Positions 5,123 to 60,436 of a DNA stretch of 64,000 nt are shown here, in pieces. The notes under the pieces are model-generated. The model was given only the letters and a program-made list of their open reading frames with translations. It did no database searches and had not been told where the DNA came from. Each line of letters begins with the position of its first letter. The first letter of the stretch is position 1. The stretch lies in contig CALUHR010000013.1 of NCBI GenBank assembly GCA_944320495.1, positions 320,001 through 384,000 of the forward strand. The letters run 5' to 3'. Source of the DNA: Candidatus Methanomethylophilaceae archaeon (lineage in GTDB: Archaea > Thermoplasmatota > Thermoplasmata > Methanomassiliicoccales > Methanomethylophilaceae). A program made the position numbers and the translations under genes.

Positions 5123-5752
5123 ATGTCCCCTTCGAAGATCGTCTGCATAGGCTGGAACTACCGCTCCCATGTGAGGGAGCTGGAATCGGAGCTTCCGAAG
5201 GAACCGACCGTGTTCCTGAAGCCGCCCAGCTGTCTCATAGGAGATGGGGAGGGGATCGTCATACCCGCGGGCGTCACGAACGTGCAGCACGAGGTGGAGC
5301 TGGCCCTGATCTTCGGGAGGAGATGCAAGAACGTCTCCGAAGAGGATGCACTCCTGTGCATCTCCGAGGTGGCGGTGTTCAACGATGTGTCGGCTAGGGA
5401 CATGCAGACCGCCGCCCGGAAGGCGGGTAACACATGGGACCTGAGCAAGGGCATGGACACCTTCGGCCCCATGTCGGACCCAGTGCCCGTGGGGTCCGTC
5501 GGTGACCTGCAGGACCTGGAACTGACCCTAACCGTCAACGGGGAGGTCAGGCAGCGCGGGAACACCTGCGACATGATATTCACGGTCCCGGAGCTCATCT
5601 CATACGTGACAAGTTTCATGACGATGGAGCCCGGCGATATCCTCATCACCGGGACCCCGGAGGGGGTGTCGGAGATCAGGCCCGGCGACGTCGTGCGCGC
5701 CGAGATCGAGGGTGTGGGCGTCGTCACCAACCCCGTGGTTTCGGGCGCCCGA
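5123..5752 (+). CDS. Fumarylacetoacetate hydrolase family protein; inferred to end at CGA 5750-5752
   Basis: KIVCIGWNY, FLKPPS, HEVELA and GDILITGTPEGV motifs; GGAGG upstream of ATG 5123. The domain ends at ...TNPVVSGA and is followed by CGA; the standard code fuses it to purS. Confidence 0.88.
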
Positions 5753-5782: not shown

Positions 5783-5791
5783 CCTTATTAT
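5783..5791 (+). promoter_or_regulatory. TATA-box candidate for purSLQ
   Basis: CCTTATTAT, an AT-rich island about 25 nt upstream of the purS ATG. Confidence 0.5.
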
Positions 5792-5815
5792 GCGCGCGCG
5801 TCATGGAAGGTCATC

Positions 5816-6055
5816 ATGACAGTCGTCGAGATCAGAATCGAGCTCAAAAAAGGGGTCGCCGACCCGGAAGGCAAGAACACCAGGAAGACGCTGGAGTCAC
5901 TGGGTTTCGAGGGCATAACCGACGTCAGGACCGTCAAGCTGTTCGAGGTCGAGTCGGAGCTCCCCGCGGACGAGGCCAAGGCCCAGGCCGAGGAGATGTG
6001 CAGGAAGCTGCTCGCGAACCCCGTCATCCAGAACTTCAGGGTATCGGTGAGATGA
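5816..6055 (+). CDS. purS: Phosphoribosylformylglycinamidine synthase subunit PurS
   Basis: LKKGVADPEG and MCRKLLANPVIQNF motifs; directly upstream of purL. Confidence 0.95.
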   Translation: MTVVEIRIELKKGVADPEGKNTRKTLESLGFEGITDVRTVKLFEVESELPADEAKAQAEEMCRKLLANPVIQNFRVSVR

Positions 6056-9301: not shown

Positions 9302-9958
9302 TCGGACGTTGACCTTCACGTCCACCCTGTCGCCGTCCTCGAGGCTGAGGGTCCTGCGGAGGTGGTACTGGCAGATGATCTCGATGATGTCCGCGTAGTG
9401 GGACCTCTCGGGGACCACGATGGCGCAGTCGATGTTGCGTATCCTCGCCTTGTAGGCGACGACGTTGCCGAAGCTGCGGCCGTTGTCCGTGAATCCGTTA
9501 ATCGGCACCCCGGCCACGCTCTTGATGACGTCGAGCTTCCCGACGTCGTCCGGGTCCACATGGATGTTCAGGGTGCCCTCGAAGGGCTCGAACCCGAGTT
9601 TGGACTTGAACTGATCCAGATAGCCGGGCTGGCAGATGTAGTAGCCGCCCTCGCCCATCCCCGACTGCACCGCGCCGTGGATGGTGATGTGGTCCGTGAG
9701 CTCGAAGATCCTGCGGTACTCGTTGTACTCCTTGCGCAGGTCGTCTATCCCCTTCTGGGTCAGCTTGATGCGCTGCCTGCGGGCGCCCAGGTCCCTGACG
9801 ATGTACTTCTCCTCCAGGAGCTCCAGAATCCTCTTGGAGGCAGATTGCTGGCTCATCTCGAGCGCTTCGCCGAGCTCCCTCGAGGAGATGGCGATGTAAT
9901 CGTCCATGGCTCCAAGCAGGGCGAGCTTCCTGAGTGCGAAGGAGTACTTCTCGTCCAT
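9302..9958 (-). CDS. ribK: CTP-dependent riboflavin kinase with N-terminal winged HTH; inferred to end at CGA 9302-9304
   Basis: HTH (SQQSASKRILEL), VQSGMGEGGYY, PFEGTLN, VVPERSHY and LRRTLSLEDGDRV motifs; in-frame CGA follows ...DVKVNV. Confidence 0.92.
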
Positions 9959-33474: not shown

Positions 33475-34020
33475 TCGGACCCAGATCGCGTGGCGGCGGC
33501 GCATGTCGTCCTCGGAGATCTCCTCGCGGGACATTATCTCGCTGACGATGCCGTCGAACAGCAGCAGCGCGGAGTCCTCGAAGACGGTCCCCAGGGGGGC
33601 CACCCTGTGCAGTCCCTCGCCCTCGGGAACGCTCATGACCAGGGACACGTCGGAGACGCGGGTCAGCGGGCTTCCGCTGGTGCCCGTTATGCAGAATATC
33701 TCGGACCCTATGCGACGGGCGATTTCCGCTGTCTGCACAACCGACGACGTCCTGCCGGTGTAGGATATGAGGAGGGTGAGGTCCTCCTTCCCGATTATGG
33801 GGGTGGTCATCTCGCCCACGAAATGCACGTCGAGCCCGAGCTGGACGAGACGCACCGCGAACATCTGGCCCACCAGCCCGGAGCGGCCGGACCCGTAGAC
33901 GAAGACCTTGCGATGGCTCAGGATCCCGGAGACTAGCTCCTCCCTGGCGTCGGCGTCGACCGAGCGGACTGCGGTCCTGCAGGTGTCCAGCAGGGTGTCC
34001 AGGTCGTCCAACTCACTCAC
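33475..34020 (-). CDS. hxlB: 6-phospho-3-hexuloisomerase (SIS domain); inferred to end at CGA 33475-33477
   Basis: FVYGSGRSGLVG, ISYTGRT and APLGTVFEDSALL motifs; ends MRRRHAIWV then CGA. Confidence 0.9.
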
Positions 34021-40993: not shown

Positions 40994-42349
40994 GTGACAT
41001 ATCTCACGGTCCCGTTCTTCACCTACATATTCGCGGTGCTGCCGGTCTGGCTGCCCCTGCTGGCAACGGACCTGGTGGCGCTGTACATCCTCATATTCAG
41101 GGAGAGGCACGACCCGAGGACGCTGATATTCTGGGTGGCGGTGGTGTTCATACTGCCGTTCCTAGGCTTCCTCTTCTACCTGCTGTTCGGCTGCACGCTG
41201 TTCGTCAGACGGTGGGGCTCGCGGAAGGAGGCATCCGACAGGAGGTTCCTGTCGGGCGTCTCGGAGGAGCCCCCGGAGGACGGCCGCAGGCTGTCCAACG
41301 TGCTCTCCAGCGCCGGGGCCGACGTGTACACGTCCGGGAACGGCGTCAGGCTGTTCTGGGACGCTCCGGACTCCTGGGGGACCTGCATGGACGCCATCCT
41401 CGCTGCCAGCCGCAGCGTGCACATCGAGACCAACAGGCTCCCGGACGACCCGTCCCTGAGGGACATGCTGGCCTCCAAGGCGCGGGAGGGAGTCGACGTC
41501 CGCATCGTCACCGGGACCCGCGGGTTCGGGAGGACCCCCGGTCTCCGCGAGCTCAGGCGCGCGGGGGTCAGGTACACAACCTTCCACGGATGGTTCCTCT
41601 CTACGTTCTCGCTCAGGGTCGAGAGCCGCTGCCTCAGGGATCTCCTCGTGGTCGACGGCTCTGTGGCGTTCACCTGCCTCGGGTCGTCGATAGAGGTCGA
41701 GGGCAGGGCCGCATCCCGCCTGGACCGCAGGTTCCTCGCCGACTGGGCGTTCGCATCCGGGGAGGCCGTCGACGTCCACGAAGACGTCCAGTCCTCCGAC
41801 GGCGGGTGCGGGGTGCAGGTGGTCCCGTCCGGTCCCGATTCGTCAGGGATGGCCATGCTCCACGGGTACTCCGAGATAATATCGGAGGCGAGGGACAGGC
41901 TGTACCTCACGTTCCCGTTCCTGATCCCCAACGACGAGATGTACAACGCCATCAAGCAGGCGGTCATCGCGGGCACCGACGTCAGGATACTCATCCCGTC
42001 GGTCTGCAGGCACTGGTACCAGCCCTGGAACTCCCTTGCCGCCTCCAACCCGCTCATGCAGGCCGGCGCGAGGGTGTACTTCTCTGACACGGCGTCGGTG
42101 AGATGCCTCGCCGTGGCGGACGGCAGGGTGCTGGCCATGGGGACCGGCGTCTTCAACTCCAGGTCCCTGTGGGCAGACTACGCGGTGAACGTGGTCGTCA
42201 GGTCGGAGGATGTGGCCAGGGACGCCGAGAGGGCGTTCATGGCCGAGCTCGACGGTGCGGCGGAGTGCCTCCCGGAGGAGTACAGCCGCAGGTCCTTCGC
42301 GGATCGCATCAAGATTGCGGTCGCCAGGATGCTGATGTTCCTGAACCGA
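40994..42349 (+). CDS. Cardiolipin-synthase-like PLD-fold membrane protein with degenerate HKD motifs; inferred to end at CGA 42347-42349
   Basis: PLDc_N (RHDPRTLIFW...LPFLGFLFYLLFG), YTSGNGV, TFPFLIPN and GTDVRILIP motifs. Confidence 0.85.
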
Positions 42350-42505
42350 TCGCCCTGGCCTTCTGAGCTGGACCTCCCCTACCTCCGTCACGGCGGCGTG
42401 GCCGGCATGCGGGGACGAAGGGCGGGGTGCAGCCCATCGGCACATCGTTCGAGGGAAGGCCACCTGCGTGCGCACCGGCCCCGTCGATCCCGCCCTTTAA
42501 GGAAT

Positions 42506-42515
42506 CTTTATAAAG
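42506..42515. promoter_or_regulatory. Palindromic TATA-box candidate upstream of rps6e
   Basis: CTTTATAAAG, about 35 nt before the ATG at 42550. Confidence 0.55.
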
Positions 42516-42549
42516 GTCTCCCCTTTAGCCCGACGTCACAGGTGTTCAA

Positions 42550-42957
42550 ATGGCAGACTTCAAAGTCGTTGTGAACGATGTCAAGACTGGAAAGTCCTAC
42601 GCCGTCCCCGTGACCGGTCACCACGCGAACTCTCTGATTGGCGTTAGCGTCGGAGAGGTCGTTGATGGTGTTTTCGTGGGCCTTCCCGACTACAAGCTCC
42701 AGGTAACCGGAGGCTCCGACTCCAACGGAACCCCCATGAGGAAGGACCTCCCCGGCAACAAGAGGGTCAAGCTCCTCCTCTCCGACGGACTCGGATTCCA
42801 CGAGGTCTATCACGGAGAGAGGAAGAGGGTCGCCATCCGCGGCGCACAGATCTCCGATGCGATCGTCCAGATCAACATGAAGGTCGTCGAGTACGGACCC
42901 AAGACCATCGAGGAGATCCTCAACCCCGCTCCCGAGGGAGAGGCTCCCGCGGAGTAA
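42550..42957 (+). CDS. rps6e: 30S ribosomal protein S6e
   Basis: [25 protein letters not shown] and QINMKVV motifs. Confidence 0.96.
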
Positions 42958-42962
42958 TTCAG

Positions 42963-44198
42963 ATGAAGGTACCGAAGCAGCCCGAGATCAACATCGGGAT
43001 GATCGGTCACGTCGACCACGGAAAGACCACCCTCACCAAGGCCCTCTCGGGCGAGTGGACGGACCGTCACTCGGAGGAGCTGAAGAGGGGAATCTCCATC
43101 CGTCTCGGATACGCCGACGTGGCGTTCTACAAGTGCCCCGAGTGCCAGGGCGCCGCCGCATACGGCACCACCAAGAAGTGCAAGAACTGCGGTGCCGACG
43201 CCGAGTTCCTGAGGGCCGTGTCCTTCGTGGACGCCCCCGGGCACGAGACGCTCATGGCGACGATGCTCTCCGGAGCCGCCCTCATGGACGGAGCCCTGCT
43301 GCTGGTGGCCGCCAACGAGAAGTGTCCCCAGCCCCAGACCAAGGAGCATCTGATGGCCCTGTCTATCATCGGCATAGACAAGATCATCATCGTCCAGAAC
43401 AAGATCGACATCGTGACCCGCGAGCAGGCCATCGAGAACTACAAGCAGATCAAGGAGTTCGTCAAGGGCACCATCGCGGAGAACGCGCCGATCATACCGA
43501 TCTCGGCCAACCGCGGCGTGAACATCGACATGCTCATCGAGGCCATCGAGGAGCACATCGTCTCCAAGATCGAGAGGAACCCCGACGCCACCCCGCTGAT
43601 GCACGTGGCCCGTTCCTTCGACATCAACTCCCCCGGAGCCAAGCCCGAGGAGCTGAGGGGCGGAGTCCTCGGAGGGTCCCTCATGCAGGGCACCCTGAAG
43701 GTCGGCGACGAGATCGAGATCGCGCCCGGACGCAAGACCGAGGTCGCGGGCAAGGTGGTCTACGAGAACATCAGGGCCACCGTCACATCTCTCGAGGCCG
43801 GAGGCAAGAGCGTCAAGAAGGTCGTTCCCGGAGGGCTGATCGCCATCGGAACTGGTCTCGACGCGGCCATGACCAAGTCGGACGGACTCACCGGGAGGGT
43901 CATCGGACGCCCCGGAGAGCTGCCCCCCGTGGTCCACGACTTCGAGATGAAGACCGTGCTGCTGGACCGTGTCGTTGGCTCGTCCGCCGAGCTCTCGGTG
44001 GACGACATCAAGAGCAACGAGCCCCTGATGCTGAGCGTCGGAACCGCGACGACCGTGGGCGTCGTCAAGAGCGCCAGGAGCGGCTCCGCCGAGGTCGCCC
44101 TCAAGATCCCCGTGTGCATCCTGCCCGGGCAGAGGGTCGCCATCTCCAGGCGCATCTCCAACAAGTGGAGACTCATCGGCTACGGTATCGTCGAGTGA
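42963..44198 (+). CDS. eif2g: Translation initiation factor aIF2 gamma
   Basis: [32 protein letters not shown] and KWRLIGYG motifs. Confidence 0.98.
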
Positions 44199-44203: not shown

Positions 44204-44569
44204 ATGCAGACGGTCGTGCTCGACACAAACGCCTTACTGATGCCCTTCGAGATCAGGATAAACCTGGACCTCGCCCTGCAGGAGCTGCTGGGCGACACCA
44301 GGATCCTGGTCCCGGGCCCCCTCATAGGGGAGCTGAAGCATCTGGACCACAAGTTCTCCGGTGCGGCGCTCGCGCTCGCCCGCAAATACGAGATCATCCC
44401 CACCGTCGCCACCGGCGACAGCGCCGTCATCGAGTTGGCGAAGCGGGAGAACGCCTTCGTGCTCACCAACGACAGGGAGCTCCGCAGGCGTCTCAGGCGC
44501 GAGAAGGTCCCGATCATCTACCTCAGGTCCGGCACCCATCTCACGATGGAGAGGTATCTCGGGGACTGA
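44204..44569 (+). CDS. PIN-domain protein (Fcf1/Utp24-like)
   Basis: VVLDTNALL and VLTNDRELRRR motifs; usual position after aIF2 gamma. Confidence 0.9.
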   Translation: MQTVVLDTNALLMPFEIRINLDLALQELLGDTRILVPGPLIGELKHLDHKFSGAALALARKYEIIPTVATGDSAVIELAKRENAFVLTNDRELRRRLRREKVPIIYLRSGTHLTMERYLGD

Positions 44570-44610
44570 GACGGGCAGTCGTTATCTACCCTCCCCCCGA
44601 TTCGGGGACC

Positions 44611-45135
44611 ATGGCATGGCCGTTCGGTAAGAAGGATGAGAAGCCGGTCGAGAACAAGCTGCCGGAGCAGTCCGAGAGGCAGTACAACCTGTTCTGGATG
44701 ATCCGCATGAGCCCGTTCGCCGACCGCTCGGACGAGGAGGTCCAGCAGGCCATCGACAGGAAGATCGCGGAGGTCGAGAGGACCCTGAGGACCCAGCCCG
44801 TCGAGATGGTCCGCGTCAAGAGCGAGAGGAAGGTCGAGAAGCTGAAGGCGCTCTCCGGTGACAGCGCAGCCATCGCCGCCGAGAGGGACGAGGCCATCCT
44901 CCACTTCAACAGGAACATGATCGAGGACAACGGAGGTTCCGTCCCCACCGATCCCGAGAAGATCTCGGCCACCGTGTCCAGGGAGGGGTGGGCCGACGGG
45001 ACGGGGCTGGTGGACGTCGATGGGATGCCCCACTGCCCCAGATGCGGCTACATCAACAGGAAGACGAAGGTCTGCGTCAACTGCGGATCGAAGCTGAGGC
45101 ACCGAGTCCTGCGATGCCTCGAGAAAACGATTTAA
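44611..45135 (+). CDS. Hypothetical protein with C-terminal Zn ribbon; may end at CGA 45103-45105
   Basis: CPRCGY...CVNCGSKLRH, then CGA; the first canonical stop is TAA at 45133. Confidence 0.7.
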   Translation: MAWPFGKKDEKPVENKLPEQSERQYNLFWMIRMSPFADRSDEEVQQAIDRKIAEVERTLRTQPVEMVRVKSERKVEKLKALSGDSAAIAAERDEAILHFNRNMIEDNGGSVPTDPEKISATVSREGWADGTGLVDVDGMPHCPRCGYINRKTKVCVNCGSKLRHRVLRCLEKTI

Positions 45136-45145
45136 GTCGTTTCAC

Positions 45146-45166
45146 GGGCCGGGTGTCGCCCGGCCC
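45146..45166. terminator. Hairpin between convergent genes
   Basis: GGGCCGGG-TGTCG-CCCGGCCC. Confidence 0.5.
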
Positions 45167-45171
45167 GACGA

Positions 45172-45651
45172 TCACTCGACGACCTCGGCCTTCAGGATCT
45201 TGACGTCCTCGAGGGGCCTGTCCCTGCGGTCGGTCTCGACCCTGCCGATCCTGTCGACGACGTCCATGCCGGAGACGACCTCGCCGAACACGGGGTGAGC
45301 GGACGGGGTGCGGGGGTCCTCCTTGTCGAGGTACTTGTTGTCCACGGTGTTGATGAAGAACTGGCTGCCTCCGGAGTGGGGCCTGCCGGTGTTGGCCATG
45401 GAGATGGTTCCCCTGACGTTGGAGTGGCCCTTGCCGAACTCGTCCTCGATGGTGTAGCCGGGTCCGCCCATTCCGGTGCCGGTGGGGTCCCCGCCCTGGA
45501 TCATGAATCCGTCGATGACCCTGTGGAAGATGGTGCCGTCGTAGAAGCCCTCCTTCGCCAGCTTGACGAAGTTGCCGGTGGTGATGGGCATGTCCTCGTT
45601 CATCTTCAGGGTGATGTCTCCCATGGTAGTGTGGAGGATGACCTGAGTCAT
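45172..45651 (-). CDS. ppiA: Cyclophilin-type peptidyl-prolyl isomerase
   Basis: FHRVIDGFMIQGGDP, SMAN, GSQFFIN and VFGEV motifs. Confidence 0.96.
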   Translation of the reverse strand: MTQVILHTTMGDITLKMNEDMPITTGNFVKLAKEGFYDGTIFHRVIDGFMIQGGDPTGTGMGGPGYTIEDEFGKGHSNVRGTISMANTGRPHSGGSQFFINTVDNKYLDKEDPRTPSAHPVFGEVVSGMDVVDRIGRVETDRRDRPLEDVKILKAEVVE

Positions 45652-45730
45652 GCACGCTCCATCCGCCCCGTGTCCTTAAACCCTTCCGCCGACCGTCCCG
45701 TTATATCGTCGCATGCCGTGCATGTTCCCG

Positions 45731-47083
45731 ATGGATCCGTTCAGGCTGCAGGACCACGGCACGACGCCGGAGAGGGAGGCTGTCGCAGGTTTCACCACGT
45801 TCCTCTCGATGGCGTACATCCTGGTCACCGTGCCGGGGATACTCTCATCGCCGGACGGGATGCAGTGGGGCGCCGTGTTCCTGGCGTCGGCGATATCGTC
45901 GGCCGTCGGCACCCTCGTCATGGCGCTGTACGCCAACGTGCCGTACGCGCTGGCCCCAGGCCTCGGGATGGCCTCGTTCCTCACGGTGACCGTGTGCGGT
46001 GACATGGGATTCACCTGGCAGGAGGGTCTGTCGATCGTCTTCATATGTGGACTCGTGAACATCGCCATAACCCTGAGCAACGTCCGCCGCCTGATTATCG
46101 CGGCCATACCCCGCAGCCTCCAGCTGGCGATATCCGGGGGCATAGGGCTGTTCCTGGCCTACGTCGGACTGCTGGAGTCCGGCCTCCTGGACCTGTCGGG
46201 GAGCACCCCCGCCCTGGGCGATCTGGCCAGCCCCCAGGTACTGCTGTTCCTCGTCGCCCTCGTCGTGTCGATGCTCCTGTACATCCGCAACGTCCGTGGG
46301 GCGCCGATCATCGCCATCGCGGTCATCGCCCTCCTGGGCATCCCGATGGGCGTGACGCACATGGGTGACAACGTGGGCTTCGGAGAGGCAGTGTCCCAGC
46401 TATGCTCCTCCTTCGGGGCGATCTTCACATCCGAGGGCATACCGGCGCTCTTCTCCGACACCAGCAGGATACTGCTGGCGCTGGTCGCCATCGTATCATT
46501 CAGTCTGGTGGACACGTTCGACACCATCGGGTCGTTCGTGGGGACCGGGAGGAAGGCCGGCATATTCACGGAGGAGGAGATGACGACCGCCGGCGATGGC
46601 GGGTTCAGGACGCGGATGGACCGCGCCCTGGTGGCCGATTCCGTCGCGACCTCCGTGGGGGCGGTGTTCGGCACCTCGAACACCACGACGGTGCTCGAAT
46701 CGGTGGTGGGGATCTCGCAGGGCGGCAGGACGGGTCTGGCATCCGTGGTGACGGCCGCGTGTATCCTGCTCATAATGCCGGCGGCGGCACTCATCAGCGT
46801 CATACCAGTGCCGGCCTATTCCGCGATCCTGGTGATGGTGGGCGTGATGATGCTCTCGTCGTTCAGGAGCATCGACTGGGAGGACCTGGGGGAGGCGGTC
46901 CCGGCGTTCTTCGCGGGGCTGTTCATCGCCCTCTGCTACAACATCAGCTACGGGATCGGATTCGCGTTCATCGCCTTCTGTCTGACCAGGGTGTTCCTCG
47001 GCCGTGCCGGGGAGGTCAGCAGGCTGATGTGGGTCGTCTCAGCCCTTTTCGCGGTGATGTTCGCGCTGCAGGCGATCGTGCGA
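45731..47083 (+). CDS. NCS2/AzgA-family purine permease; inferred to end at CGA 47081-47083
   Basis: AGFTTFLSMAYI, ALAPGLG, DTFDTIGS, TSNTTTVLES and QGGRTGL motifs; ends ALQAIV then CGA. Confidence 0.92.
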
Positions 47084-47095
47084 TCGCGAGAAGCC

Positions 47096-48145
47096 TCGCC
47101 TGCGCTTCCTTCCGGACATCGCCACATAGGCGAGCAGATGTTCCAGCTGCACCCTCTCGAGGGGCATGCCCATGCCCCCGGACCCGCACTGGGCTATGCG
47201 GAAGTCCGTCTCCCCGACCTTGTCCAGGAGCCTCACGGCCTCCGCCCCCTCCAGCCCGAGCTCCAAGGCCTGCCTCTGGATCTCCGTGGCGATCTCGCGG
47301 CAGGTCATGCCCTCGCCGATGAGCAGCCCGTCCAGCGCGTCCCTGGCGGCCATGAAGTCGCCCGAGCGTGCCTTGGAGAGCATGTCCCTGACCCCGTTGG
47401 AGGAGCGGGTCTCGGACACGGCGAAGACCGCGTCGAGGTCCACGCGGCCTCTGGTCACGGCGGCCGCCTGGAGCATGGCCATCGCCCTCCTGATGTCCCC
47501 GTCGGCGGCCATGGCGATACCGTCCGCCGCCCCGCGGTCCAGTTCGACGCCCTCGGACTCTGCGACCTCGACGATGCGCTTCGAGAGGTCGGCGCGGGGT
47601 ATGGGGACGAACCTGACGACCCCGCACCTGGACCTCACGGGGTCGATTATCATGGACTGGTGGTTGCAGGCGAGGATGAACATGCAGTTGCGGGAGTAGA
47701 CCTCCATGGTGCGCCTGAGGGCCTCCTGCACCTCCTTGGACATCGTGTCGACCTCGTCGATGAAGACGACCCTGAACCTGACTCCGTCTATCGATGCCGT
47801 GGACACGAACTCCTTGATTCTCCAGAGGGGGCTGTCCATCGTCTTGGTGACGGTCCTGACGGTCGTCTCTCCCTCGTCATCGGTCTCCGTGACGGTGACC
47901 TCGCGTTTCTTGGTGAGGTCGGAGGCGTCGATCTCCAGGAAGTTGCCCTCGATGTTGCCCTCCAGGACCTCCCTCGCGACGATGAGCGCGCAGGTGGTCT
48001 TGCCGGTCCCCGGGGGGCCCGCCAGGAGGAGGTGCGGCACGCTCTGCTGGGACGTCAGCGGTCTGAGCCTCTCGACGGCCATCGGCTGGCCCACGATCCC
48101 GTCCAGGGATGTCGGCCTGTACTTCTCCATCCAGACGGACTCCAT
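47096..48145 (-). CDS. rfcS: Replication factor C small subunit paralogue; inferred to end at CGA 47096-47098
   Basis: [34 protein letters not shown] and GDIRRA motifs. Confidence 0.92.
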
Positions 48146-48239
48146 CTTGATCGGGGGTCCATGCCCCTCGACCTATTAGGGTCCATCGTCCGTCGCAATC
48201 TGCTTATATCGCAAACTGGTTAAGCGGTCACTTAATGGG

Positions 48240-49040
48240 ATGAACGGCATGGACGACATCGCGGAGGATCTGAGGGTGGTGTCGGACGGGACGAGGTTCT
48301 CGATCCTGGCCATCCTCCTCAGGCACGACATCTGCTCCGGGGCCCTGGCACGCAGGCTGGGGATATCCGAGGCGGCCGTGTCCCAGCACATGAGGGTGCT
48401 GAGGGAGGCCGGTTTCGTCACTCCCGTCCGCCGCGGGTACTTCACCCACTACGAGGTGGACCGCGACAGGATCCGCATGCTGGCACATGCTCTGGAGGCC
48501 ATGTCCCTGAGCGACCGCGCCCCATGCGACCCGGTCCTCGAGGGATGTGACAGGAAGGGCCGCGGGAGCTGCCGGTCGGCGGTCCCCGGTGCCGGATGTC
48601 CCAGGATGGAGGGCGGTGAGCCCCCTTGCCCGGGGTGCCGCCGCTGCATGACAGAGAGAAGGTCGGGAATCATGAGGGTAGCAGCCACATACGAGAACGG
48701 GGAGGTCTTCCAGCACTTCGGGAGGACGCAGCAGTTCAAGGTCTACGATATCGAGGACGGGAGGGTGGTCTCGTCCGCGGTCCATGGGACCGGCGGCAGG
48801 GGTCACGGCGAGCTCATCAATGTGCTGAGGGAGCTCGATGTCTCCGCGCTCATCTGCGGGGGCCTCGGGGGCGGTGCGATGCAGGGGCTCGAGGCTTCGG
48901 GCATACGTGTCGTGCCGGGATGCTCCGGGGATGCGGACGCCGCCGTGCAGGCGTTCGCCGAGGGGAGGCTGGAGGGACCCACGGGGCCCACCTGCGACCA
49001 CCACGGCGAGGGTCACCAGTGCTCCTGCGGGAGGCACCGA
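48240..49040 (+). CDS. ArsR-family HTH, Cys-rich linker and NifB/NifX (FeMo-co-binding-like) domain in one reading frame; inferred to end at CGA 49038-49040
   Basis: ArsR motifs (TRFSIL, SQHMRVLREAG); NifX-like VFQHFGRT...LICGGLGGGA from ATG 48672; His/Cys-rich tail CDHHGEGHQCSCGRH. Confidence 0.82.
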
Positions 49041-51239
49041 TCGCCCGTAGAACGGGACCGAGTCCCAGCCGGTGCGGCGCCTCCTTATGCGCCGGCCGGC
49101 GTCCTCGTACCCGTCCATGACCTCCTTGGTCACGGACGGCATCACGAGCCCCAGCGCCGCATCGAAATGACGCTGGCACACCTTCGCGGCCCCGGGGTCC
49201 TCGCGGTAGGCGGCCAGTCCCGCCTCGCGGCACACCGAGGCGAGGTCCGCGCCGGTGTAGCCGTCGGTGGACCTCGCGACCGCATCCAGGTCCACGCCGT
49301 CCAGAGGCATCCTCTTTGTGTGCACCGCCAGTATGCTCCTGCGGGCCCTCTCGTCGGGCTTCCCCACGAGGACGAGCCTGTCGAACCTGCCGGGCCTCAG
49401 CAGGGCCGGGTCTATCATGTCCGGGCGGTTGGTGGCGCCCATGACGGTCACGTTGCGCATGCCCTCGACCCCGTCCATCGAGGTGAGGAGCTGGGCGACG
49501 ACCCTCTCCCATGCGGAGCCGTCCCCCGCTCCGCGGATGGGGGCGATCGAGTCCAGCTCGTCGAAGAATATGATGCAGGGGGCCATCTGCTTGGCCCTCT
49601 TGAAGATCTGACGGATGGCGCGCTCGCTCTCGCCCATCCACTTGCTGGCCATCTCGGGACCGTTGACCGAGATGAAGTTGGTCCCGGACTCGTTGGCCAT
49701 CGCCTTCGCTATCAGGGTCTTGCCGGTCCCGGGCGGTCCGTAGAGCAGGACCCCCTTCCCCGGCTCGATGCCGAGCCTCTCGCAGGGGTTGCCCTCCTCG
49801 GTGGACAGCACCTCGCGGATCTGCGCCCTCACATCGTCCAGGCCCCCGACGTCCTCCCAGGTGACCTTGGGGATCTCGACCAGCACCTCGCGCATGCCAC
49901 TGGGCTCCACGTCGGACAGCGCAGCCCTGAAGTCGTCCATGGACACGCGCATGCTCTCGAGGATCTCCGACGGGACCTTCCGGTCCAGGTCGAACTCCGA
50001 CATGCGGGCGCTGAGGCAGTGCATGGCGGCCTCCCTGCAGAGGGCGGCCAGGTCGGCGCCCACGAAACCCTGGGTCATGGAGGCGAGCGCGTCCGGGGTG
50101 ACGTCCTCGGTCAGTGGCATCTCCCTCAGGTGGACGGAGAGGATGTCCGCCCTCGCCTTCCTCCCGGGAATCCCGACCTCGATCTCCCTGTCGAACCTTC
50201 CAGGGCGTCTCAGCGCCGGGTCGATGGAGTCCTCCCTGTTGGTGGCGCCGATGACTATGACGTTCCCCCTGTCCCCGAGGCCGTCCATCAGGGTGAGGAG
50301 CTGGGCCACCACCCTGCGCTCCACCTCGCCAGAGACCGCGTCCCTGCTGGGGGCGATGGAGTCTATCTCGTCCAGGAACACGATGCTGGGTGCGCTCTCC
50401 TCCGCCTTCTTGAATATCTCCCTCAGGCGCTCCTCGCTCTGGCCGTAGTACTGGCCCATGATCTCCGGTCCGCGGACCGAGAACAGGGTGGCGCCCGACT
50501 CGTTGGCGACCGCCTCGGCCATGAGGGTCTTCCCTGTGCCGGGCGGTCCGTAGAGGAGTACGCCCCTCGGGGCCCCTATGCCCAGGCGCTCGAAGAGCTC
50601 CGGATGCTTCAGGGGGAGCTCTATCATCTCACGGATGCGCTTCAGCTCGTCATCCAGGCCGCCCACGTCGTCATAGGTGATCTGATGGCCGGTCTGGCTC
50701 TTCGCCGTCTCACGCTTGCGGGGACCGTCCCTGACGACAACCTTGGTGGATTCCGTGACGATGACCGGTCCCTTCGGGACGGTGGATGCGACCGAGAACG
50801 TGGAGCGGTTGCCCATGAGGGCGATGTTCGGCACGATGATGTCCGTGTCCGCCACGAGGGGGCGGTTGAGGAGCCCCCGGAGGAAGATCTCCTCGATCCC
50901 GTCCTCGAACCTGATGCGCTTGCCCTCGGGGATGTTCGGGGAGAGGACGACCTGCTCGGCGGGGGCGGGGTCGCATCTCCTCACGGTGACGCTCTCGTCC
51001 ACGCTGACCCCCGCGTTGGTCCTGGTGAGGCCGTCTATCAGCAGCAGGCCGCGGCCCTCGTCCGTCTGGTCGCCCTTGAAGACCTTGGCGACGACGGTGC
51101 GCTTCCCGACGATCTCGATGGTGTCCCCCAGCTCCAGACCGAGGGCCCTGCGGGACTCGGAGTCCATCCTAGCCCTCCCATATCCCGCCTCGGACTGGGA
51201 CCTGGCCATCGCGACTTTCAGGACGATCGAATCGGACAT
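49041..51239 (-). CDS. cdc48: CDC48/VAT AAA+ ATPase; inferred to end at CGA 49041-49043
   Basis: N-domain plus two AAA modules (GPPGTGKT twice, FLDEIDS, FFDELDS, RPGRFDR); ends WDSVPFYG then CGA. Confidence 0.95.
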
Positions 51240-51269
51240 CGCCCGTAATGAATGCGTCCGCTCGGATAA

Positions 51270-52076
51270 TCATCGCGGTCCCGATCGCTCCCGCAGGCTT
51301 TCCATGGCGTCCGCCGCGTGGGCCCTGAACAGGTCCCTGAACTCGGGGTACTCGCCCATGCCGCGAACGATGCAGCGGGGGTTGTACCCGGCCGCGGCCA
51401 TGACGCTCCTGAGGGAGTCCTCCTCGTCCCCGGCGAGGTCGTTGTTGGCGTGGTCCCCGGCGACGATCATGAGCGGGAACATCGCGACATCCTTGCGATC
51501 ACAGCCCTCCATGAGGCCGAGGGTGCTGTCGTAGTCGGGGAAACCCTCCACCGTCGTGACGTAGACGTCCCTGCGGCCGGAGGCGATCAGCCTGAGCTGG
51601 AGCTCGCTGTACGCCGAGTTCGCGAAGTGGGTGGTGCCGTGGCCCATGAGCACCATGGCGTCGCCTTCCGCCTCGGGGCCGTATGCGGCCCCGATCGCCT
51701 CGATGAGGGCGTCGAAGTCCTCGGAGGTCGTCAGGAGAGGCCTCCCGACGGTGATGGCGTCGAACCTGTCTCTGCGCCTCTCCACCTCCTCCATCATGTA
51801 GTCGTACTCGACGCCGTTCATCACGAGCGTGGGCTGGACCACCACGGTCCCGTAGCCCTCGTCGGCCAGCCTGTCCAGGGCGGCATCGACGAAGTCGACG
51901 TGGATGCCCCTCTTCTCGAGGATCCTTATCACCGGACGGCTGGTGAACGCCCTCCTGACATCCCATCCGGGGAAGGATTCTGCGATGTGCCTCTCGATGG
52001 CGCCGATGGTCTTCTCGCGGGTATCATCGTAGCTCGTCCCGTAGCTGGCGACGAGGATGGCCTTCTTTTCCGACAT
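51270..52076 (-). CDS. cbiK: Sirohydrochlorin cobaltochelatase CbiK; may end at CGA 51285-51287
   Basis: LVASYGTS, RRAFTS, MGHGT, TVEGFP, PLMIVAGDHANND and GMGE motifs. Confidence 0.93.
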   Translation of the reverse strand: MSEKKAILVASYGTSYDDTREKTIGAIERHIAESFPGWDVRRAFTSRPVIRILEKRGIHVDFVDAALDRLADEGYGTVVVQPTLVMNGVEYDYMMEEVERRRDRFDAITVGRPLLTTSEDFDALIEAIGAAYGPEAEGDAMVLMGHGTTHFANSAYSELQLRLIASGRRDVYVTTVEGFPDYDSTLGLMEGCDRKDVAMFPLMIVAGDHANNDLAGDEEDSLRSVMAAAGYNPRCIVRGMGEYPEFRDLFRAHAADAMESLRERSGPR

Positions 52077-52191
52077 GTGAGTTGGATATATGCTCCACCT
52101 TAAAAATCCACCCGAAGGCCCTCCGGCGCCCGGTTCCCGACTGAACACTTAATATCAGCAAGGGGATGCGAGGGCAGTCAGAGGAAGTCCA

Positions 52192-53346
52192 ATGGTGTCA
52201 AAGAGGCTTCAGGAGATCCCGGCATCGGGAACAATCGCCATCTCCAATCTGGTCAGCCAGATGAAGGCGGAGGGCGTGGACATCGTATCGTTCTCCATGG
52301 GGGAACCCGATTTCACCACGCCGGAGAACGTCATCGACGCGTGCTGCGACTCGCTCCACCGCGGGTTCACCCATTACACCCCGTCCACCGGCATCATGGA
52401 GCTCCGGCAGGCCGTGGCGGACATGGAGCGCGAGAAGGACGGAGTGCCCTGCAAGGCGTCCAACGTGCTCATCACGCCGACGAAGCAGGCCATCTTCATG
52501 ATCGCCCTCGCCTACATCGATCCCGGCGACGAGGTCATCCTCTCCGACCCGTCCTGGGTCTCCTACGAGGCGTGCATCCGCCTCGCCGGTGGAGTGCCCG
52601 TGTACGTGCCCACCAGGTACGAGGACGAGTTCGTGCTGGACCCCGCCGCCGTAGAGGCCGCGGTGACCCCCAGGACGAAGATGATCATCCTGAACACCCC
52701 GTCCAACCCGACCGGGACCGTGATCCCGGAGAGCGTCCTCAGGGAGATAGCCAGGATCGCCGAGGAGCACGACCTCCTCGTGATGTCCGACGAAATCTAC
52801 GAGAGCATCATCTACGAGGGCAAGCACACCTCGTTCGCATCCCTGCCCGGCATGTTCGACCGCACCCTGCTGGTGTCCGGTCTGTCCAAGACCTACGCGA
52901 TGACCGGGTGGAGGCTCGGATGGGCGATCGGCTCCGAGGAGAACATCAAGGCCATCAACAAGCTCCAGTCCCACTCCATCTCCTGCTGCGTGTCCTTCGT
53001 CCAGGAGGCCGCCGTGGAGGCCATCCGCGGACCGCAGGAGTCCAAGGACGCCATGGTCAGGGAGTTCAGGAAGAGGCGCGACCTCGCGCTGGACCTCATC
53101 GCCGAGATCCCGCAGCTCGAGTGCAACGTCCCCAAGGGGGCCTTCTACGTGTTCCCGAAGTACAGCGTCGACATGCCGTCCGCGAAGCTCGCGGAGGTCC
53201 TCCTGAAGGAGGGGCACGTCGCCGTCACCCCCGGGACCGCCTTCGGACCCGGCGGCGAGGGATTCTTCAGGGTCTCCTACGCCACCTCCGAGGACCAGAT
53301 CCGCGAGGGATTCGACAGGATCAAGAGGACGCTGGCACAGCTCTGA
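52192..53346 (+). CDS. aspC: Aspartate aminotransferase (class I PLP)
   Basis: GEPDF, NTPSNPTG, SDEIYE, SKTYAMTGWRLG and GAFY motifs. Confidence 0.93.
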   Translation: MVSKRLQEIPASGTIAISNLVSQMKAEGVDIVSFSMGEPDFTTPENVIDACCDSLHRGFTHYTPSTGIMELRQAVADMEREKDGVPCKASNVLITPTKQAIFMIALAYIDPGDEVILSDPSWVSYEACIRLAGGVPVYVPTRYEDEFVLDPAAVEAAVTPRTKMIILNTPSNPTGTVIPESVLREIARIAEEHDLLVMSDEIYESIIYEGKHTSFASLPGMFDRTLLVSGLSKTYAMTGWRLGWAIGSEENIKAINKLQSHSISCCVSFVQEAAVEAIRGPQESKDAMVREFRKRRDLALDLIAEIPQLECNVPKGAFYVFPKYSVDMPSAKLAEVLLKEGHVAVTPGTAFGPGGEGFFRVSYATSEDQIREGFDRIKRTLAQL

Positions 53347-56611: not shown

Positions 56612-58488
56612 GGATGGCCGTCTTCCCGTACCCCTACCGTCCCGGCCAGAGGGAGCTGGTCTCCTTCATAGACCGCTCCGCCCGGGACGGCATGTGTCCC
56701 GTCGTCGAGGCGGGGACGGGCACCGGGAAGACCGTCTCCTCCCTGGCCGGCATGCTCCCGCTGGCCGGGGAGCGGGACCTCAAGATAATCTATCTGACGC
56801 GCACGAAGTCCCAGCAGGCGCAGGTCCTGCGGGAGTGCTCCGCCATCGGCGGGGTCGTGTGCATCGGCCTCCAGGGCCGCTCCGCCTCCTCCTGTCCGAT
56901 GATGAGGGACGACCCGGACCTCAGGTCAGGCACCCCGGAGGAGATCTCGAAGCTGTGCTCCGAGCTGAAGCGCAGGACCGAATCCGGATGCGCCTGCCCG
57001 TACTTCGCCAACCTCGAGGGTGCGGACGAGGAGCACTGGCTCTCCGTCCTGTCGCAGGAGGGCATGACGCCGGAATCGTCCTCCGAGGTGTGCGAGGAGG
57101 CGGGACTGTGCCCGTACGAGCTCCTCAAGCACCTCCTGCCGAGGGCGGACGTCATCGCCGCCTCGTACCCGTTCATGTTCGTGCCGCCCATACTCGCGAG
57201 GTTCGAGGAGTGGGTGGGCGTGCCGGTGGAGAGGATGCTCGTCATCGCCGACGAGGCCCACAACCTCCCCGACTACCTGCGCGAGGTGCAGACCTACGAG
57301 TACAGCAGATGGTCCATGGACATGGCCGAGAAGGAGTCCAGGGAGTTCGGGGACCGGGAGATCCACCAGGGGATCACCGTCTCGGACGTGGCCGCCGTGC
57401 TGAGGGAGATACTGGAGGCCACGGCCAAGGAGTACCTGATCGACGAGGACGGCATCATCCCCCCGCACTTCGTGGAGGACGAGCTGATGGCCCGCCTCGG
57501 GGTGACGTCGGTCGGCCTCGGGAGGATCTCGAGGGGCCTGACGGACCTGGGGGACGTCATCGAGGAGCAGAGGAAGCAAAGGCGCAAGCTGCCCCGCTCC
57601 TACATCGGGATGATGGGGAGGTTCCTCGACGCGTGGATGTCGGAGGAGGACCCCAGCTGCGTCCGCCTGGTTATCGGAGGCACGAACCCCTGCTTCCAGT
57701 CCTACTGCATGGATCCAGCCCCGGCGGCGGAGCCGCTGAACGCGTGCCACTCGGCGCTGCTGATGTCGGGGACGCTGGAGCCTCTGGAGGACTATGTACG
57801 GGAGATGGGCATCGAGAGGCCGGCGATCCGCCGCCAGCCCAGCGCGTTCGACCCTGGCCATCTCCTCACGCTGTACACCGACAGGGTGTCGATGAAGTAC
57901 GAGGAGAGGTTCCTCGAATCCAACTATGCGGCGCTGAGGTCGCTCCTCCTCGACACCGTGAACTCCGTCCGCGTGAACACGGCGGTGTTCTTCCCGTCCT
58001 ACGACCTGATGGACAGGATGGTGTCCGAGGGCATCGTCGACGCCCTGGGCAGGGACGTGTACTTCGAGCGGAGGGGCATGCCGCAGGGGGAGCTGATGGA
58101 GACCTTCGACCAGTTCAGGACCTCCGAGGGGAGCGTCCTCTTCTGCGTGACCGGCGGCAGGATGAGCGAGGGCCTCGACTTCCCGGACAAGGCCCTGGAG
58201 CTCGCGGTGCTGATCGGGATACCGTATCCGAAGCCCACGGCCAAGTCCAGGGCCATGGTGCGCTACTACGACCGCCGCTTCGGGGACGGGACGAAGTACG
58301 TGACGAGGATCCCGGCGGAGCGCAAGATGCGCCAGTCCATCGGCCGTCTGATAAGGTCGGAGACGGACCGCGGGGTGGCGGTCATACTGGACCGGAGGGT
58401 CGTCTCCATGGATCTCGGGGCGATGCTCTGCTCCGACATACCCTCGGCGGTGGCCGCGTTCCTCTCCGAAGGCCGGTCGCGACGATAG
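56608..58488 (+). CDS. xpd: XPD/Rad3-like Fe-S DNA helicase; ends CGA-CGA-TAG
   Basis: AGTGTGKT, Fe-S Cys cluster (SCP, LC, CPYF, LCPY), ADEAHN, SGTL, SEGLDF and QSIGRLIR motifs. Confidence 0.93.
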   Translation: MRMAVFPYPYRPGQRELVSFIDRSARDGMCPVVEAGTGTGKTVSSLAGMLPLAGERDLKIIYLTRTKSQQAQVLRECSAIGGVVCIGLQGRSASSCPMMRDDPDLRSGTPEEISKLCSELKRRTESGCACPYFANLEGADEEHWLSVLSQEGMTPESSSEVCEEAGLCPYELLKHLLPRADVIAASYPFMFVPPILARFEEWVGVPVERMLVIADEAHNLPDYLREVQTYEYSRWSMDMAEKESREFGDREIHQGITVSDVAAVLREILEATAKEYLIDEDGIIPPHFVEDELMARLGVTSVGLGRISRGLTDLGDVIEEQRKQRRKLPRSYIGMMGRFLDAWMSEEDPSCVRLVIGGTNPCFQSYCMDPAPAAEPLNACHSALLMSGTLEPLEDYVREMGIERPAIRRQPSAFDPGHLLTLYTDRVSMKYEERFLESNYAALRSLLLDTVNSVRVNTAVFFPSYDLMDRMVSEGIVDALGRDVYFERRGMPQGELMETFDQFRTSEGSVLFCVTGGRMSEGLDFPDKALELAVLIGIPYPKPTAKSRAMVRYYDRRFGDGTKYVTRIPAERKMRQSIGRLIRSETDRGVAVILDRRVVSMDLGAMLCSDIPSAVAAFLSEGRSRR

Positions 58489-59243: not shown

Positions 59244-59873
59244 TCAGGCGCCGTCCAATCTGGCCGCATCGACCGAGGCCCTGGCGAGCGCATCGATGTC
59301 GACGGCAGCGCTCATCTCCGCCACCTTGGCGGGGTCCGCCTCCGTGACGGGGTGGATGGGAACGATGGAGCATCCGTGACCCGGTCTGATGGATATGTCA
59401 TAGGTCCCGATGTCCTTGGCTATGGCCTCGATCTCGAGCTTGTCCATGCCGATGAGCGGTCTGACGACGGGGAAGTCGAGACCCTGGTTCTCCGCGCGTA
59501 TGTTGCGGAGCGTCTGCGAAGCGACCTGTCCGAGCGAGTCGCCCATGACGATCCCGGAGCATCCGAGCCTTCTCCCCAGCTCCCTCGCCGTCCTCTGCAT
59601 GACGCGCTTGCACATGACGCACTGATAGGGATGGGGGCAACCATCGTGTATCGCGTCCTGTGACGGCGCGTGGGGGGCGATCCAGAGCGGGAGCTCCTGT
59701 CCGGTGGATTCCCTGAGCGCGTCTGCGATGTCCCTGACGTCGTCCAGCTGGACCGGTCCGGAATAGGGGGTGTTGTCCATGTGGAGGAGGACGACCTCGG
59801 CTCCCACGGAGCACATTCTGTGGACGGCGACCGGCGAGTCGATCCCGCCGGACATCAATGCGATGAGCCTCAT
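59244..59873 (-). CDS. thiI: ThiI-like PP-loop ATPase without THUMP domain
   Basis: LMSGGIDSPVA, GDSLGQVASQT, RPLIGMDKLEI and IGTYDIS motifs. Confidence 0.85.
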   Translation of the reverse strand: MRLIALMSGGIDSPVAVHRMCSVGAEVVLLHMDNTPYSGPVQLDDVRDIADALRESTGQELPLWIAPHAPSQDAIHDGCPHPYQCVMCKRVMQRTARELGRRLGCSGIVMGDSLGQVASQTLRNIRAENQGLDFPVVRPLIGMDKLEIEAIAKDIGTYDISIRPGHGCSIVPIHPVTEADPAKVAEMSAAVDIDALARASVDAARLDGA

Positions 59874-60436
59874 CGGAGGACCACGTCGCCGTAGTCGTCC
59901 GCCAGCTTCCTGGGAATGGCGTACCTGCACTCGGGGCAGTACAGGCCCTCGCCCTTCTTGTCGCGGACCATCTCGGTCTTGCACTTGGAGCAGAGCGCCC
60001 TGATGCATCCGAGGTGCTTGTCCTTGGTGGCGAGCTGGAGGGAGGGCTTGGTCTCGGTGACGACCGCCCTGATGTAGTCGCCCTTGCGGAGCTCCTTGGA
60101 CACGTCGTCGGTGTACTTGGGGGAGATCTTGGACACGTGGAGGGTCGCGTAGGTCTCCCCTCCCACGTTCTTGCTGGTGCCCTCCTTGGCCACGACGTCC
60201 GCGGTGGCCATGGTGCTCCTGATGTCGGCCACGACCGCGTAGACGACGTCCCCCTTCTTCAGGATGTTAGGGGGGTTGGGGCAGACGACGGATGCGGTGC
60301 ACTCGTCGTCGTCCAGAACGAGGGTGCCGACCTGGGACGCGTAGACGGTACCGTTGTCCGCGAAGGTCCCCTCTCCCGCGGCGTACTCCTCTTCCACGGC
60401 GACCTCGTCGCCGGGCATGACGAACCTGGAATCCAT
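59870..60436 (-). CDS. csl4: Exosome subunit Csl4; ends CGA-TGA
   Basis: VMPGDE, GDYIRAVV, LGCIRALCSKC and CPEC...RKLADDYG motifs. Confidence 0.93.
   Translation of the reverse strand: MDSRFVMPGDEVAVEEEYAAGEGTFADNGTVYASQVGTLVLDDDECTASVVCPNPPNILKKGDVVYAVVADIRSTMATADVVAKEGTSKNVGGETYATLHVSKISPKYTDDVSKELRKGDYIRAVVTETKPSLQLATKDKHLGCIRALCSKCKTEMVRDKKGEGLYCPECRYAIPRKLADDYGDVVLR

Follow-up and report, generated by a model that had tools for sequence, protein, structure and literature searches.

The convergent permease and RFC genes

The 64,000-nucleotide stretch of DNA analysed here (the window) covers positions 320,001 to 384,000 of contig CALUHR010000013.1 in assembly GCA_944320495.1 of a Candidatus Methanomethylophilaceae archaeon, a 1.77-Mb genome of 14 contigs with ~62% GC. 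At positions 47081-47098, it carries the ends of two convergent genes, one encoding a permease of the NCS2 family and the other a paralog of the RFC small subunit. The original prediction, made from the letters of the window, proposed that both genes end at the codon CGA, a sense codon in the standard reading (table 11). It further proposed that the genes lie tail to tail with a 12-nt spacer if CGA is a stop, and that the open reading frame (ORF) of the permease otherwise extends far into the RFC gene on the opposite strand.

Inspection of the junction (...GCG ATC GTG CGA TCG CGA GAA GCC TCG CCT GCG...) agreed with each of these points. The plus frame reads ...FALQAIV followed by CGA, and the minus frame reads ...MSGRKRR followed by CGA (positions in Table 1). 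When CGA was added to the standard code as a fourth stop (the four-stop reading), two ORFs were obtained, 45713..47083 (456 aa) and 47096..48145 (349 aa), separated by the predicted spacer. With table 11, the permease ORF reached 48223 (836 aa), running ~1.14 kb antisense through the RFC gene, and the RFC ORF extended on the minus strand from 48145 to 47039 (368 aa), with 19 extra sense codons up to a TGA at 47039.

Profile searches placed the end of both proteins close to the CGA codon. The permease matched the Pfam family Xan_ur_permease (PF00860; E 2.7e-32, 112.4 bits for a cut-off of 27) over residues 22-414, corresponding to profile positions 3-386 of 389; no NCBIfam equivalog matched it. 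The RFC protein matched NF001679 from NCBIfam (317.4 bits, cut-off 303) over residues 2-347 and profile positions 5-320 of 322. The tails that table 11 adds to the two ORFs had no family match in Pfam or NCBIfam. The GC content of third codon positions (GC3) dropped at both sites (permease, 0.89 to 0.60; RFC, 0.94 to 0.65), and neither the permease nor the RFC paralog contains an internal CGA.

Comparison of orthologue lengths, which the original prediction had put forward as a check, gave the same picture: RFC and permease orthologues ended at a corresponding CGA, TGA or TAA. Compared genomes are designated Gnnn (G000 being the genome that holds the window), sequencing runs X1-X21 and loci Lnnn. 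The RFC paralog ended in ...MSGRKRR-CGA in G018, ...GRKLKKN-CGA in G013, ...GRRARR-CGA followed by an immediate canonical stop in G009, and ...GRRRR-TGA in G010. The permease ended in ...AIV-CGA (G018), ...ALV-CGA (G013), ...AMMDVMM-TGA (G004), ...AYTNI-TGA (G028) and ...AYSSY-TAA (G024), and these ends lay 0-4 residues from that of the G000 permease, a point that the original prediction had placed directly behind the last putative TM helix. The proteins with shared CGA ends come from separately assembled genomes and are just 62-70% identical; identical CGA codons in independently assembled relatives make a read error unlikely.

The RFC gene is a second small-subunit copy. The canonical one (G000:C3:91882-92838) aligns with it in two pieces, residues 1-76 and 106-349, and the intervening insert of the paralog is acidic. 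Clear orthologues of the paralog were found in only 7 of 30 relatives (G018, G013, G009, G010, G004, G029 and G030).

Collectively, orthologue lengths, the ends of family profiles, the genome-wide pattern described below and the CGA codons shared with relatives support the proposed reading of CGA as a stop. Judged by these criteria, both genes, permease and RFC paralog alike, are of ordinary full length and predicted to terminate at CGA. Because ~20% of the genes of this archaeon end in the same way, a neighbouring pair ending in CGA is unremarkable in itself.

CGA at gene ends in the genome and its relatives

The behaviour of CGA across G000 was analysed with a codon log-odds model, trained on orthologue-aligned regions, which scores the sequence after each in-frame codon. 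Sites were scored if the in-frame codon was preceded by 60 confident coding codons free of stop-like codons. CGA was followed by non-coding-like sequence at 162 of 166 sites (97.6%), compared with 95.8% for TGA (n=721), 90% for TAA (n=20) and 9-26% for the sense codons tested. GGA, AGA, TCA and TTA, which like CGA differ from TGA by one step, showed baseline sense-codon behaviour, and simpler tests based on GC3 left the ranking of codons unchanged. In these tests CGA thus resembled TGA and none of the sense codons. A codon model self-trained on long ORFs had failed for G000, as antisense ORFs contaminated the training set, and was replaced by the orthologue-based models. TAG, which we take to encode pyrrolysine in this order (Methanomassiliicoccales), was followed by non-coding-like sequence in 31% of cases after confident coding (n=13), coding continuing about as often as not; this pattern fits a partial sense use of TAG in G000.

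In the four-stop proteome (1145 confident ORFs), 867 genes ended in TGA, 228 in CGA, 33 in TAA and 17 in TAG, making CGA the second most used terminator after TGA. CGA ends were present on all contigs of G000 except the 11.8-kb contig C12, and accounted for 3-31% of the ends per contig. On contig C4 (33 kb), one of 36 confident genes ended in CGA.

CGA was nearly absent from sense positions. Among 21,905 G000 codons aligned to the outgroup G024, only three were CGA (opposite Q, E and L) and none was opposite an arginine (Arg); the same alignments held 27 CGG, 67 CGT and 71 AGA in G000, and 28 CGA in G024, 15 of which were opposite Arg. Alignments between G000 and G008 contained 69 apparently internal CGA codons (35 opposite R). 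These were rejected as evidence of sense use, since most lay at the very end of alignments, in frames antisense to conserved genes (CGA<->GGA is equivalent to TCG<->TCC on the opposite strand), or ahead of the real start, in non-coding, CGA-rich 5' stretches of stop-to-stop ORFs. The location of CGA codons in the long stop-to-stop ORFs found in G008 and G024 was likewise discarded as uninformative, many of these ORFs being non-coding.

Orthologous C-termini were compared for pairs aligned to within 6 residues of both ORF ends. Where a G000 gene ending in CGA had a partner in another genus or family, the partner ended at a canonical stop in 22 of 22 cases (14 TGA, 8 TAA). Partners from the G008 clade, within the same genus, ended in TGA in 20 cases and in CGA in one. 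Within the CGA-using clade, 25 pairs had CGA on both sides, 42 had CGA in G000 and TGA in the partner, 15 showed the reverse, and one combined TAA in G000 with CGA in the partner. Table-11 tails of 404, 231, 159, 114, 62 and 57 codons in G000 each started with a CGA located 0-14 codons from the stop of the partner.

CGA stops also had a sequence context of their own. The base following the codon (+4) was T at 100 of 166 CGA stops and at ~31% of TGA stops (Fisher p = 5e-12), the +5 base was C or G at 89% of CGA stops, and the preceding base (-1) was A at 6% of CGA stops against 20% of TGA stops. The codons most frequent after a CGA stop were TCG (31), TGG (15) and TGA (12; n=166); TCG, which creates the palindrome CGATCG, followed 31 of 166 CGA stops and 40 of 721 TGA stops. 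An immediate canonical stop was found after 13 of 162 CGA codons and 20 of 690 TGA codons (p = 0.005), and a canonical stop occurred within ten codons of 34% of CGA and 23% of TGA ends. In the top decile of codon bias, the numbers were 6 of 228 CGA-ending and 107 of 867 TGA-ending genes, the CGA-ending genes having lower scores. This difference and the low share of CGA ends on contig C4 suggest that highly expressed genes avoid CGA stops. The context, the back-up stops and the codon bias fit a somewhat weaker, context-dependent terminator.

The same codon scoring was applied to samples of 20-200 kb from each relative. Stop-like CGA ends were detected in 11 of the 15 genomes of the genus that were sampled. 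In-frame CGA sites accounted for 166 of 920 sampled ends in G000, 18/63 in G010, 8/34 in G009, 10/37 in G001, 5/31 in G002, 3/18 in G014, 9/64 in G013, 8/92 in G004, 2/23 in G060, 2/72 in G006 and 1/46 in G018; all 11 genomes had one or more CGA sites that preceded non-coding-like sequence (80-100% of sites). No stop-like CGA end was seen in the samples of G053 (0 of 20 ends), G015 (0 of 48) and G007 (0 of 15). The G008 sample (77 ends) also held no stop-like CGA end, its one in-frame CGA being followed by coding-like sequence. Among the other genera of the family, those with sufficient power had either sense-like CGA (3 of 4 sites in g10, 3 of 3 in g17) or a singleton (g16, g21 and g12). The CGA users are the GC-rich members, with 57-64% GC in the samples, and CGA ends were frequent in no sampled part of Methanomethylophilaceae other than these GC-rich members of a single genus. 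In the G008 sample (loci L044-L053), a CGA was also noted at a conserved Gly of a hydrogenase small-subunit-like motif, DYYVP-G-CPP, at which G000 has a Gly codon (C13, minus strand, 522228).

In the window itself, 14 of the 67 called genes end in CGA (Table 1). Pfam and NCBIfam searches were run on 13 of them. Ten matched a family (FAA hydrolase, riboflavin kinase, HxlB, cardiolipin synthase, the permease, RFC, CDC48, CbiK, XPD and Csl4), and the match stopped at CGA in all ten; the three submitted genes without an assigned family had no match in either database. The riboflavin kinase tail also had no family match, and the sole domain found in any tail of the window was PurS, which belongs to a separate gene downstream in the same frame. 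The FAA-hydrolase gene and purS (5123-6055, plus strand) are separated only by CGA and 21 codons, and table 11 reads them as one fused protein.

Near-identical sequence to positions 44500-52500 was present in chicken-gut and bird metagenome runs from several studies and in gut metatranscriptome runs (X1-X21). Contigs of DNA run X1, which may be the source sample, were identical to the window over 42167-43005 (0 differences), 51023-52594 and 59266-59996, spanning the CGA stops at 42347, 51285 and 59873. A 3.9-kb contig of run X2 bridged 45570-49438.

Table 1. Genes and CGA codons of the window (positions of the window; a dot marks a feature without strand).
Feature	Position	Strand	Evidence
NCS2-family (xanthine/uracil-type) permease, 456 aa	45713..47080	+	Pfam, GC3, orthologue ends
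CGA as permease terminator, context GTG CGA TCG CGA	47081..47083	+	Coding signal stops; orthologue stops
12-nt spacer of the convergent genes	47084..47095	.	Sequence
CGA as RFC-paralog terminator	47096..47098	-	Orthologue stops; NF001679
RFC small-subunit paralog, 349 aa, ~29-aa insert after residue 76	47099..48145	-	NF001679
CGA end of FAA-hydrolase-family gene 5123-5752	5750..5752	+	Pfam FAA_hydrolase 1-214/214 stops at residue 206/209
PurS, same frame as the FAA-hydrolase gene	5816-6055	+	Separate Pfam match 2-76/77
CGA end of wHTH/CTP-dependent riboflavin kinase gene 9302-9958	9302..9304	-	NF010762 profile 5-221/224 stops at CGA; table-11 tail 376 codons
CGA end of 6-phospho-3-hexuloisomerase gene 33475-34011	33475..33477	-	TIGR03127 profile 3-175/178 stops at residue 175/178; tail 235 codons
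CGA end of cardiolipin synthase gene 40994-42349	42347..42349	+	TIGR04265 profile 14-479/483 stops at residue 447/451
CGA end of CDC48-family AAA ATPase gene 49041-51239	49041..49043	-	TIGR01243 profile 3-727/733 stops at residue 716/732; tail 271 codons
CGA end of CbiK cobaltochelatase gene 51285-52076	51285..51287	-	Pfam CbiK profile 1-262/262 stops at residue 259/263
CGA CGA TAG end of XPD/Rad3-type helicase gene 56608-58482	58477..58485	+	Helicase_C_2 stops at residue 612/624
CGA TGA tandem end of exosome Csl4 gene 59873-60436	59870..59875	-	NF034126 profile 2-179/180 stops at residue 183/187
CGA end of 164-aa gene 44611-45105	45103..45105	+	Codon model only, no family match
Further CGA end, no family match	36495-36497	+	Codon model only
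Further CGA end, no family match	20977-20979	-	Codon model only
Further CGA end (doubtful), no family match	56203-56205	-	Codon model only

Internal CGA codons, tRNA-Arg(UCG) and aRF1

Only a handful of G000 CGA sites were followed by coding sequence: one in the gene for the release factor aRF1, one in a flavodoxin-like gene, one at a gmhA-gmhB junction, and a few at which a neighbouring gene follows in the same frame. The flavodoxin-like gene (G000:C8:55685, plus strand) reads ...FTGKTI-CGA-PFCTNEGSGLG and coding goes on beyond the codon. At G000:C13:194145 (minus strand; loci L176-L195), a gmhA-like and a gmhB-like domain are joined via CGA. The outgroups G024, G028 and G022 have one ORF with a Lys or Pro codon at this junction. 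Within the genus, 11 genomes have CGA without a start codon ahead of the DRDD motif. The junction codon is AGA in G016 and G012 and TAG in G017, and G007 and G005 have two overlapping genes, each with its own ATG. In G011, CGA also encodes the Arg position of the DRDD motif. A further pair, NifH-like (cfbC-like) and NifD-like (cfbD-like) genes in one frame with a CGA in between, is kept in G000 (C5, ~230616, minus strand) and G008; its CGA is a true internal case and the only stop-like CGA in the G008 sample. None of these internal sites has T at +4. Being followed by coding sequence, they indicate that CGA is still readable at selected places, most simply as Arg.

The Arg tRNA anticodons found by ARAGORN in G000 were UCU, CCU, CCG, GCG and UCG. 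The tRNA(UCG) gene lies at G000:C13:413317-413390 (plus strand, locus L105) and has orthologues in 11 other genomes of the genus. In 10 of 10 distinct sequences aligned from the genus, the 31-39 pair, which tops the anticodon stem, is non-standard (A·A, C·A or U·C), leaving a 4-bp anticodon stem. This pair is C-G in both outgroup tRNA-Arg(UCG) sequences, and the remaining 19 pairs are 100% paired and covarying. The D-loop is 3 nt shorter in the genus than in the outgroups. A pattern search had indicated that tRNA(UCG) is absent from G008, G015 and G007, a result overturned when a covariance model built on the cloverleaf structure matched an orthologous tRNA; in the G008 clade, this orthologue has an odd anticodon loop, CCUCGAC, with C at position 33.

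G000 has one aRF1 gene (G000:C2:85942-87135, minus strand, locus L013). Next to the NIKS motif, aRF1 of the genus reads EQSQAS before the motif, most outgroups having EYSQSS, and KTTMKNV after it, in place of K-S-T-R-K-N-V. In 15 of 16 genomes of the genus, the gene has an internal CGA 20 codons after NIKS, the sole CGA in its coding part. All 12 genomes of other families encode Arg at this site with other codons. The CGA is invariably embedded in NCT-CGA-CTN, even though synonymous sites nearby vary and G000 rarely uses the codon GCT. At true CGA stops, by contrast, the -1 base is T in 2% and the +4 base is C in 14% of cases. In the sixteenth genome (G005), the site is Lys, and a CGA is found just ahead of the GRGT loop instead. 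The NCT-CGA-CTN site is present in 38 of the 80 public aRF1 loci from the family, and in 7 more a CGA occupies this position with different flanks. Most of the remaining loci have recurrent CGA sites elsewhere in the N-domain, before GRGT/GKGT (19 loci) or within A-CGA-YDFK (4), Y-CGA-CDS (5) and YL-CGA-DEYS (2), and only 3 of the 80 lack CGA altogether. In one relative, aRF1 itself ends in ...YRPN-CGA (L199).

How CGA may be read, and what it would mean

What was originally described for one gene pair is, on comparative sequence evidence, a clade-wide change in the reading of CGA, associated with an altered tRNA and with a CGA inside aRF1, and goes beyond what the original prediction foresaw. 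We consider it probable that CGA is mainly a stop in this archaeon, that aRF1 reads it, and that a weakened tRNA-Arg reads through at a few sites. According to this model, the single aRF1 would recognise CGA, which differs from UGA by one base, most readily when U and then C or G follow (CGA-U-(C/G)), and would compete with a tRNA-Arg(UCG) weakened by the loss of the 31-39 pair. A different context might let the tRNA win and insert Arg, as would be the case in the aRF1 gene (NCU-CGA-CUN), at the gmhA-gmhB junction and in the flavodoxin-like gene. A role of aRF1 as the reader of CGA is plausible because yeast eRF1/eRF3 decode CGA as a stop to some extent, in competition with tRNA-Arg (PMC7379694; here and below, statements on cited reports are limited to the part of each text available). 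In yeast reporters, a single CGA at the end of a gene was detectably read as a stop, as a low-level side reaction (PMC7379694). The proposed system resembles that of yeast in opposing a factor of the eRF1/aRF1 family to tRNA-Arg at CGA, and differs from it in that an archaeal genome would rely on CGA stops.

Several observations weigh against this interpretation. The compared genomes are metagenome bins or representatives. G018, the closest relative, had a single CGA end (of 46) in a 40-kb sample and none in 41 orthologue pairs; it nonetheless shares the CGA of the permease and that of the RFC paralog. CGA stands where Arg is expected at the aRF1 site, at the gmhA-gmhB codon (AGA in G016 and G012) and at the DRDD Arg of G011, and tRNA(UCG) is kept with an intact cloverleaf, so that CGA is decodable in principle. 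The NIKS, YxCxxxF and GGQ motifs of aRF1 are unchanged and its N-domain is almost the same in the clade rich in CGA stops as in the G008 clade, where none were seen; for these reasons, no residue can be named as the cause of C recognition at the first codon position. RNA contigs (X15) covering the CGA stops at 45103 and 51285 carry 2-3 differences, and contigs hide minor variants.

The conserved CGA in the aRF1 mRNA may allow aRF1 to limit its own synthesis by negative feedback; CGA would then be a slightly leaky, context-dependent stop and the aRF1 site possibly a feedback site. Bacterial prfB, the gene of release factor 2, is autoregulated through an in-frame UGA and a +1 frameshift. Like prfB, the archaeal release-factor gene holds an in-frame codon at which its own product would terminate, in a conserved special context; unlike prfB, plain read-through by tRNA-Arg would suffice for the putative feedback.

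A more specific version of this model attributes a dual meaning to CGA. By default, CGA would be a stop read by aRF1 in the CGA-U context, and a deliberately weakened tRNA(UCG) would decode it as Arg at programmed sites, including the aRF1 mRNA. The link between aRF1 and CGA would predate the reassignment and may have been a stepping stone for GC pressure turning TGA into CGA. This proposal is tentative, and we rate its chances at somewhat below even. The order of events could have been the following: CGA was very rare and its coupling to aRF1 already existed in the family, the tRNA was then weakened, and T-to-C changes at TGA stops finally became tolerable in GC-rich lineages and accumulated.

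Among the alternatives, an editing of mRNA from C to U would leave the genetic code standard and create UGA at the ends concerned. One change is sufficient for this, and the shared context of the sites, CGA-T-C/G and often CGATCG, could be the recognition motif of an enzyme. Editing leaves four features unexplained, namely the near-absence of sense CGA, the consistently missing 31-39 pair of tRNA(UCG), the single conserved CGA of aRF1 and the excess of back-up stops. RNA contigs showed no overall excess of C>T (26 places in X15, compared with 30 for T>C), and we know of no site-specific C-to-U editing of mRNA in archaea. We regard this explanation as very unlikely.

CGA could also be effectively unassigned. 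A slow, crippled tRNA would then stall the ribosome, and a rescue pathway would free the peptide without decoding by aRF1. The altered tRNA(UCG), the avoidance of CGA ends in the most codon-biased genes and the more frequent back-up stops are all in keeping with such a scheme, and the yeast study frames the action of eRF1 at CGA as rescue of stalled ribosomes (PMC7379694). However, the rescuer in yeast is eRF1 itself, so that this alternative largely merges with termination by aRF1. The dependence of ~20% of genes on CGA, including those for CDC48, RFC, CbiK and Csl4, implies that release must be efficient and accurate; CGA ends are conserved across 60-70% protein identity, and the specific +4/+5 context resembles a termination signal. 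As an account distinct from aRF1-mediated release, stalling and rescue appear highly improbable.

A technical origin, by which errors of base calling, assembly or polishing at a methylated motif (GATC or CGATCG) turned TGA into CGA, is hardly credible. It would draw on the TC that follows 47 of 166 CGA stops, forming GATC (CGATCG in 31), and on the nature of the genome as a 14-contig bin. The majority of CGA stops nonetheless lie outside GATC, and the same CGA recurs in separately assembled genomes (four for RFC, three for the permease, and 15 as well as 38 public loci for aRF1). The X1 contigs are letter-identical over three CGA stops, even if this run is possibly the source sample. The context specific to CGA stops speaks against a random or in-silico T-to-C change, as the context of TGA would have persisted, and an error blind to the reading frame would neither purge CGA from sense positions nor alter a tRNA. 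Equally hard to credit is the view that CGA is Arg throughout and that genes were truly extended or fused after stop loss: tRNA(UCG) exists and a few CGA codons are clearly internal, but the tails, up to 404 codons long, have no coding signal, no domain (apart from PurS, a separate gene) and no protein-level conservation, and stop loss would not choose CGA alone among the one-step neighbours of TGA.

To our knowledge, no cellular genome, whether bacterial, archaeal or nuclear, has turned a sense codon into a stop, a change known only from organelles; vertebrate mitochondria, for instance, use AGA and AGG as stops. The change in CGA, in this gut archaeon of methanogen type and its close relatives, would be the first sense-to-stop change of the code outside organelles. 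Literature searches turned up no earlier description of a CGA stop for this group, supplementary tables, which possibly list CGA as "uninferred" for members of the family, being outside their scope. Sense-to-stop reassignments are described in organelle codes such as those of green-algal mitochondria (PMC6821328, PMC12574857). The similarity to these codes lies in a codon of standard sense meaning that is found at gene ends and vanishes from sense positions. Organelle genomes of this kind are tiny and hold about a dozen genes, whereas the genome concerned here is that of a cellular archaeon with roughly 230 CGA ends; the codon is CGA, its cognate tRNA is retained in altered form, and a few sites are still Arg.

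In archaea, the Codetta screen, in its available text, found no changed sense codon, with a method that cannot infer stops. CGA was missing from recognisable domains in two archaeal assemblies from hydrothermal vents, and a stop role was raised there as a possibility and not tested (bioRxiv 10.64898/2026.04.02.715157). These assemblies have ~50% GC, CGG reassigned to Trp and no tRNA(UCG), and their author states that the method used cannot infer stops (bioRxiv 10.64898/2026.04.02.715157). Unlike in the vent archaea, the stop role was read here from gene ends, in another lineage and with tRNA(UCG) kept.

Codons of ambiguous stop and sense meaning offer a parallel to the competition proposed above. 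UAG can be stop or pyrrolysine in methanogens (bioRxiv 10.1101/2025.06.11.659114), termination depends on context in ciliates (PMC4967479), and a tRNA-Trp with a short anticodon stem reads UGA (PMC13092985). In these systems as in the present model, the outcome would be set by context and by competition between release factor and tRNA, and a 4-bp anticodon stem accompanies a change of the code. The direction is the opposite one: there, a stop gained sense, whereas here a sense codon would have become a stop, and the tRNA with the short stem is cognate to the disappearing codon.

If CGA is a stop, standard gene callers would predict fused or overlong products for about one in five genes of these gut archaea, such as the 836-aa "permease", and would corrupt protein databases; code-inference tools unable to infer stops would miss the change. 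Sequenced relatives are numerous and stand at different stages, with CGA nearly unused, CGA as a rare stop, or CGA at up to ~29% of sampled gene ends, which would make the route of a sense-to-stop change directly testable. The altered tRNA and the CGA inside aRF1 suggest, in addition, a novel mechanism by which a release factor could gauge how abundant it is.

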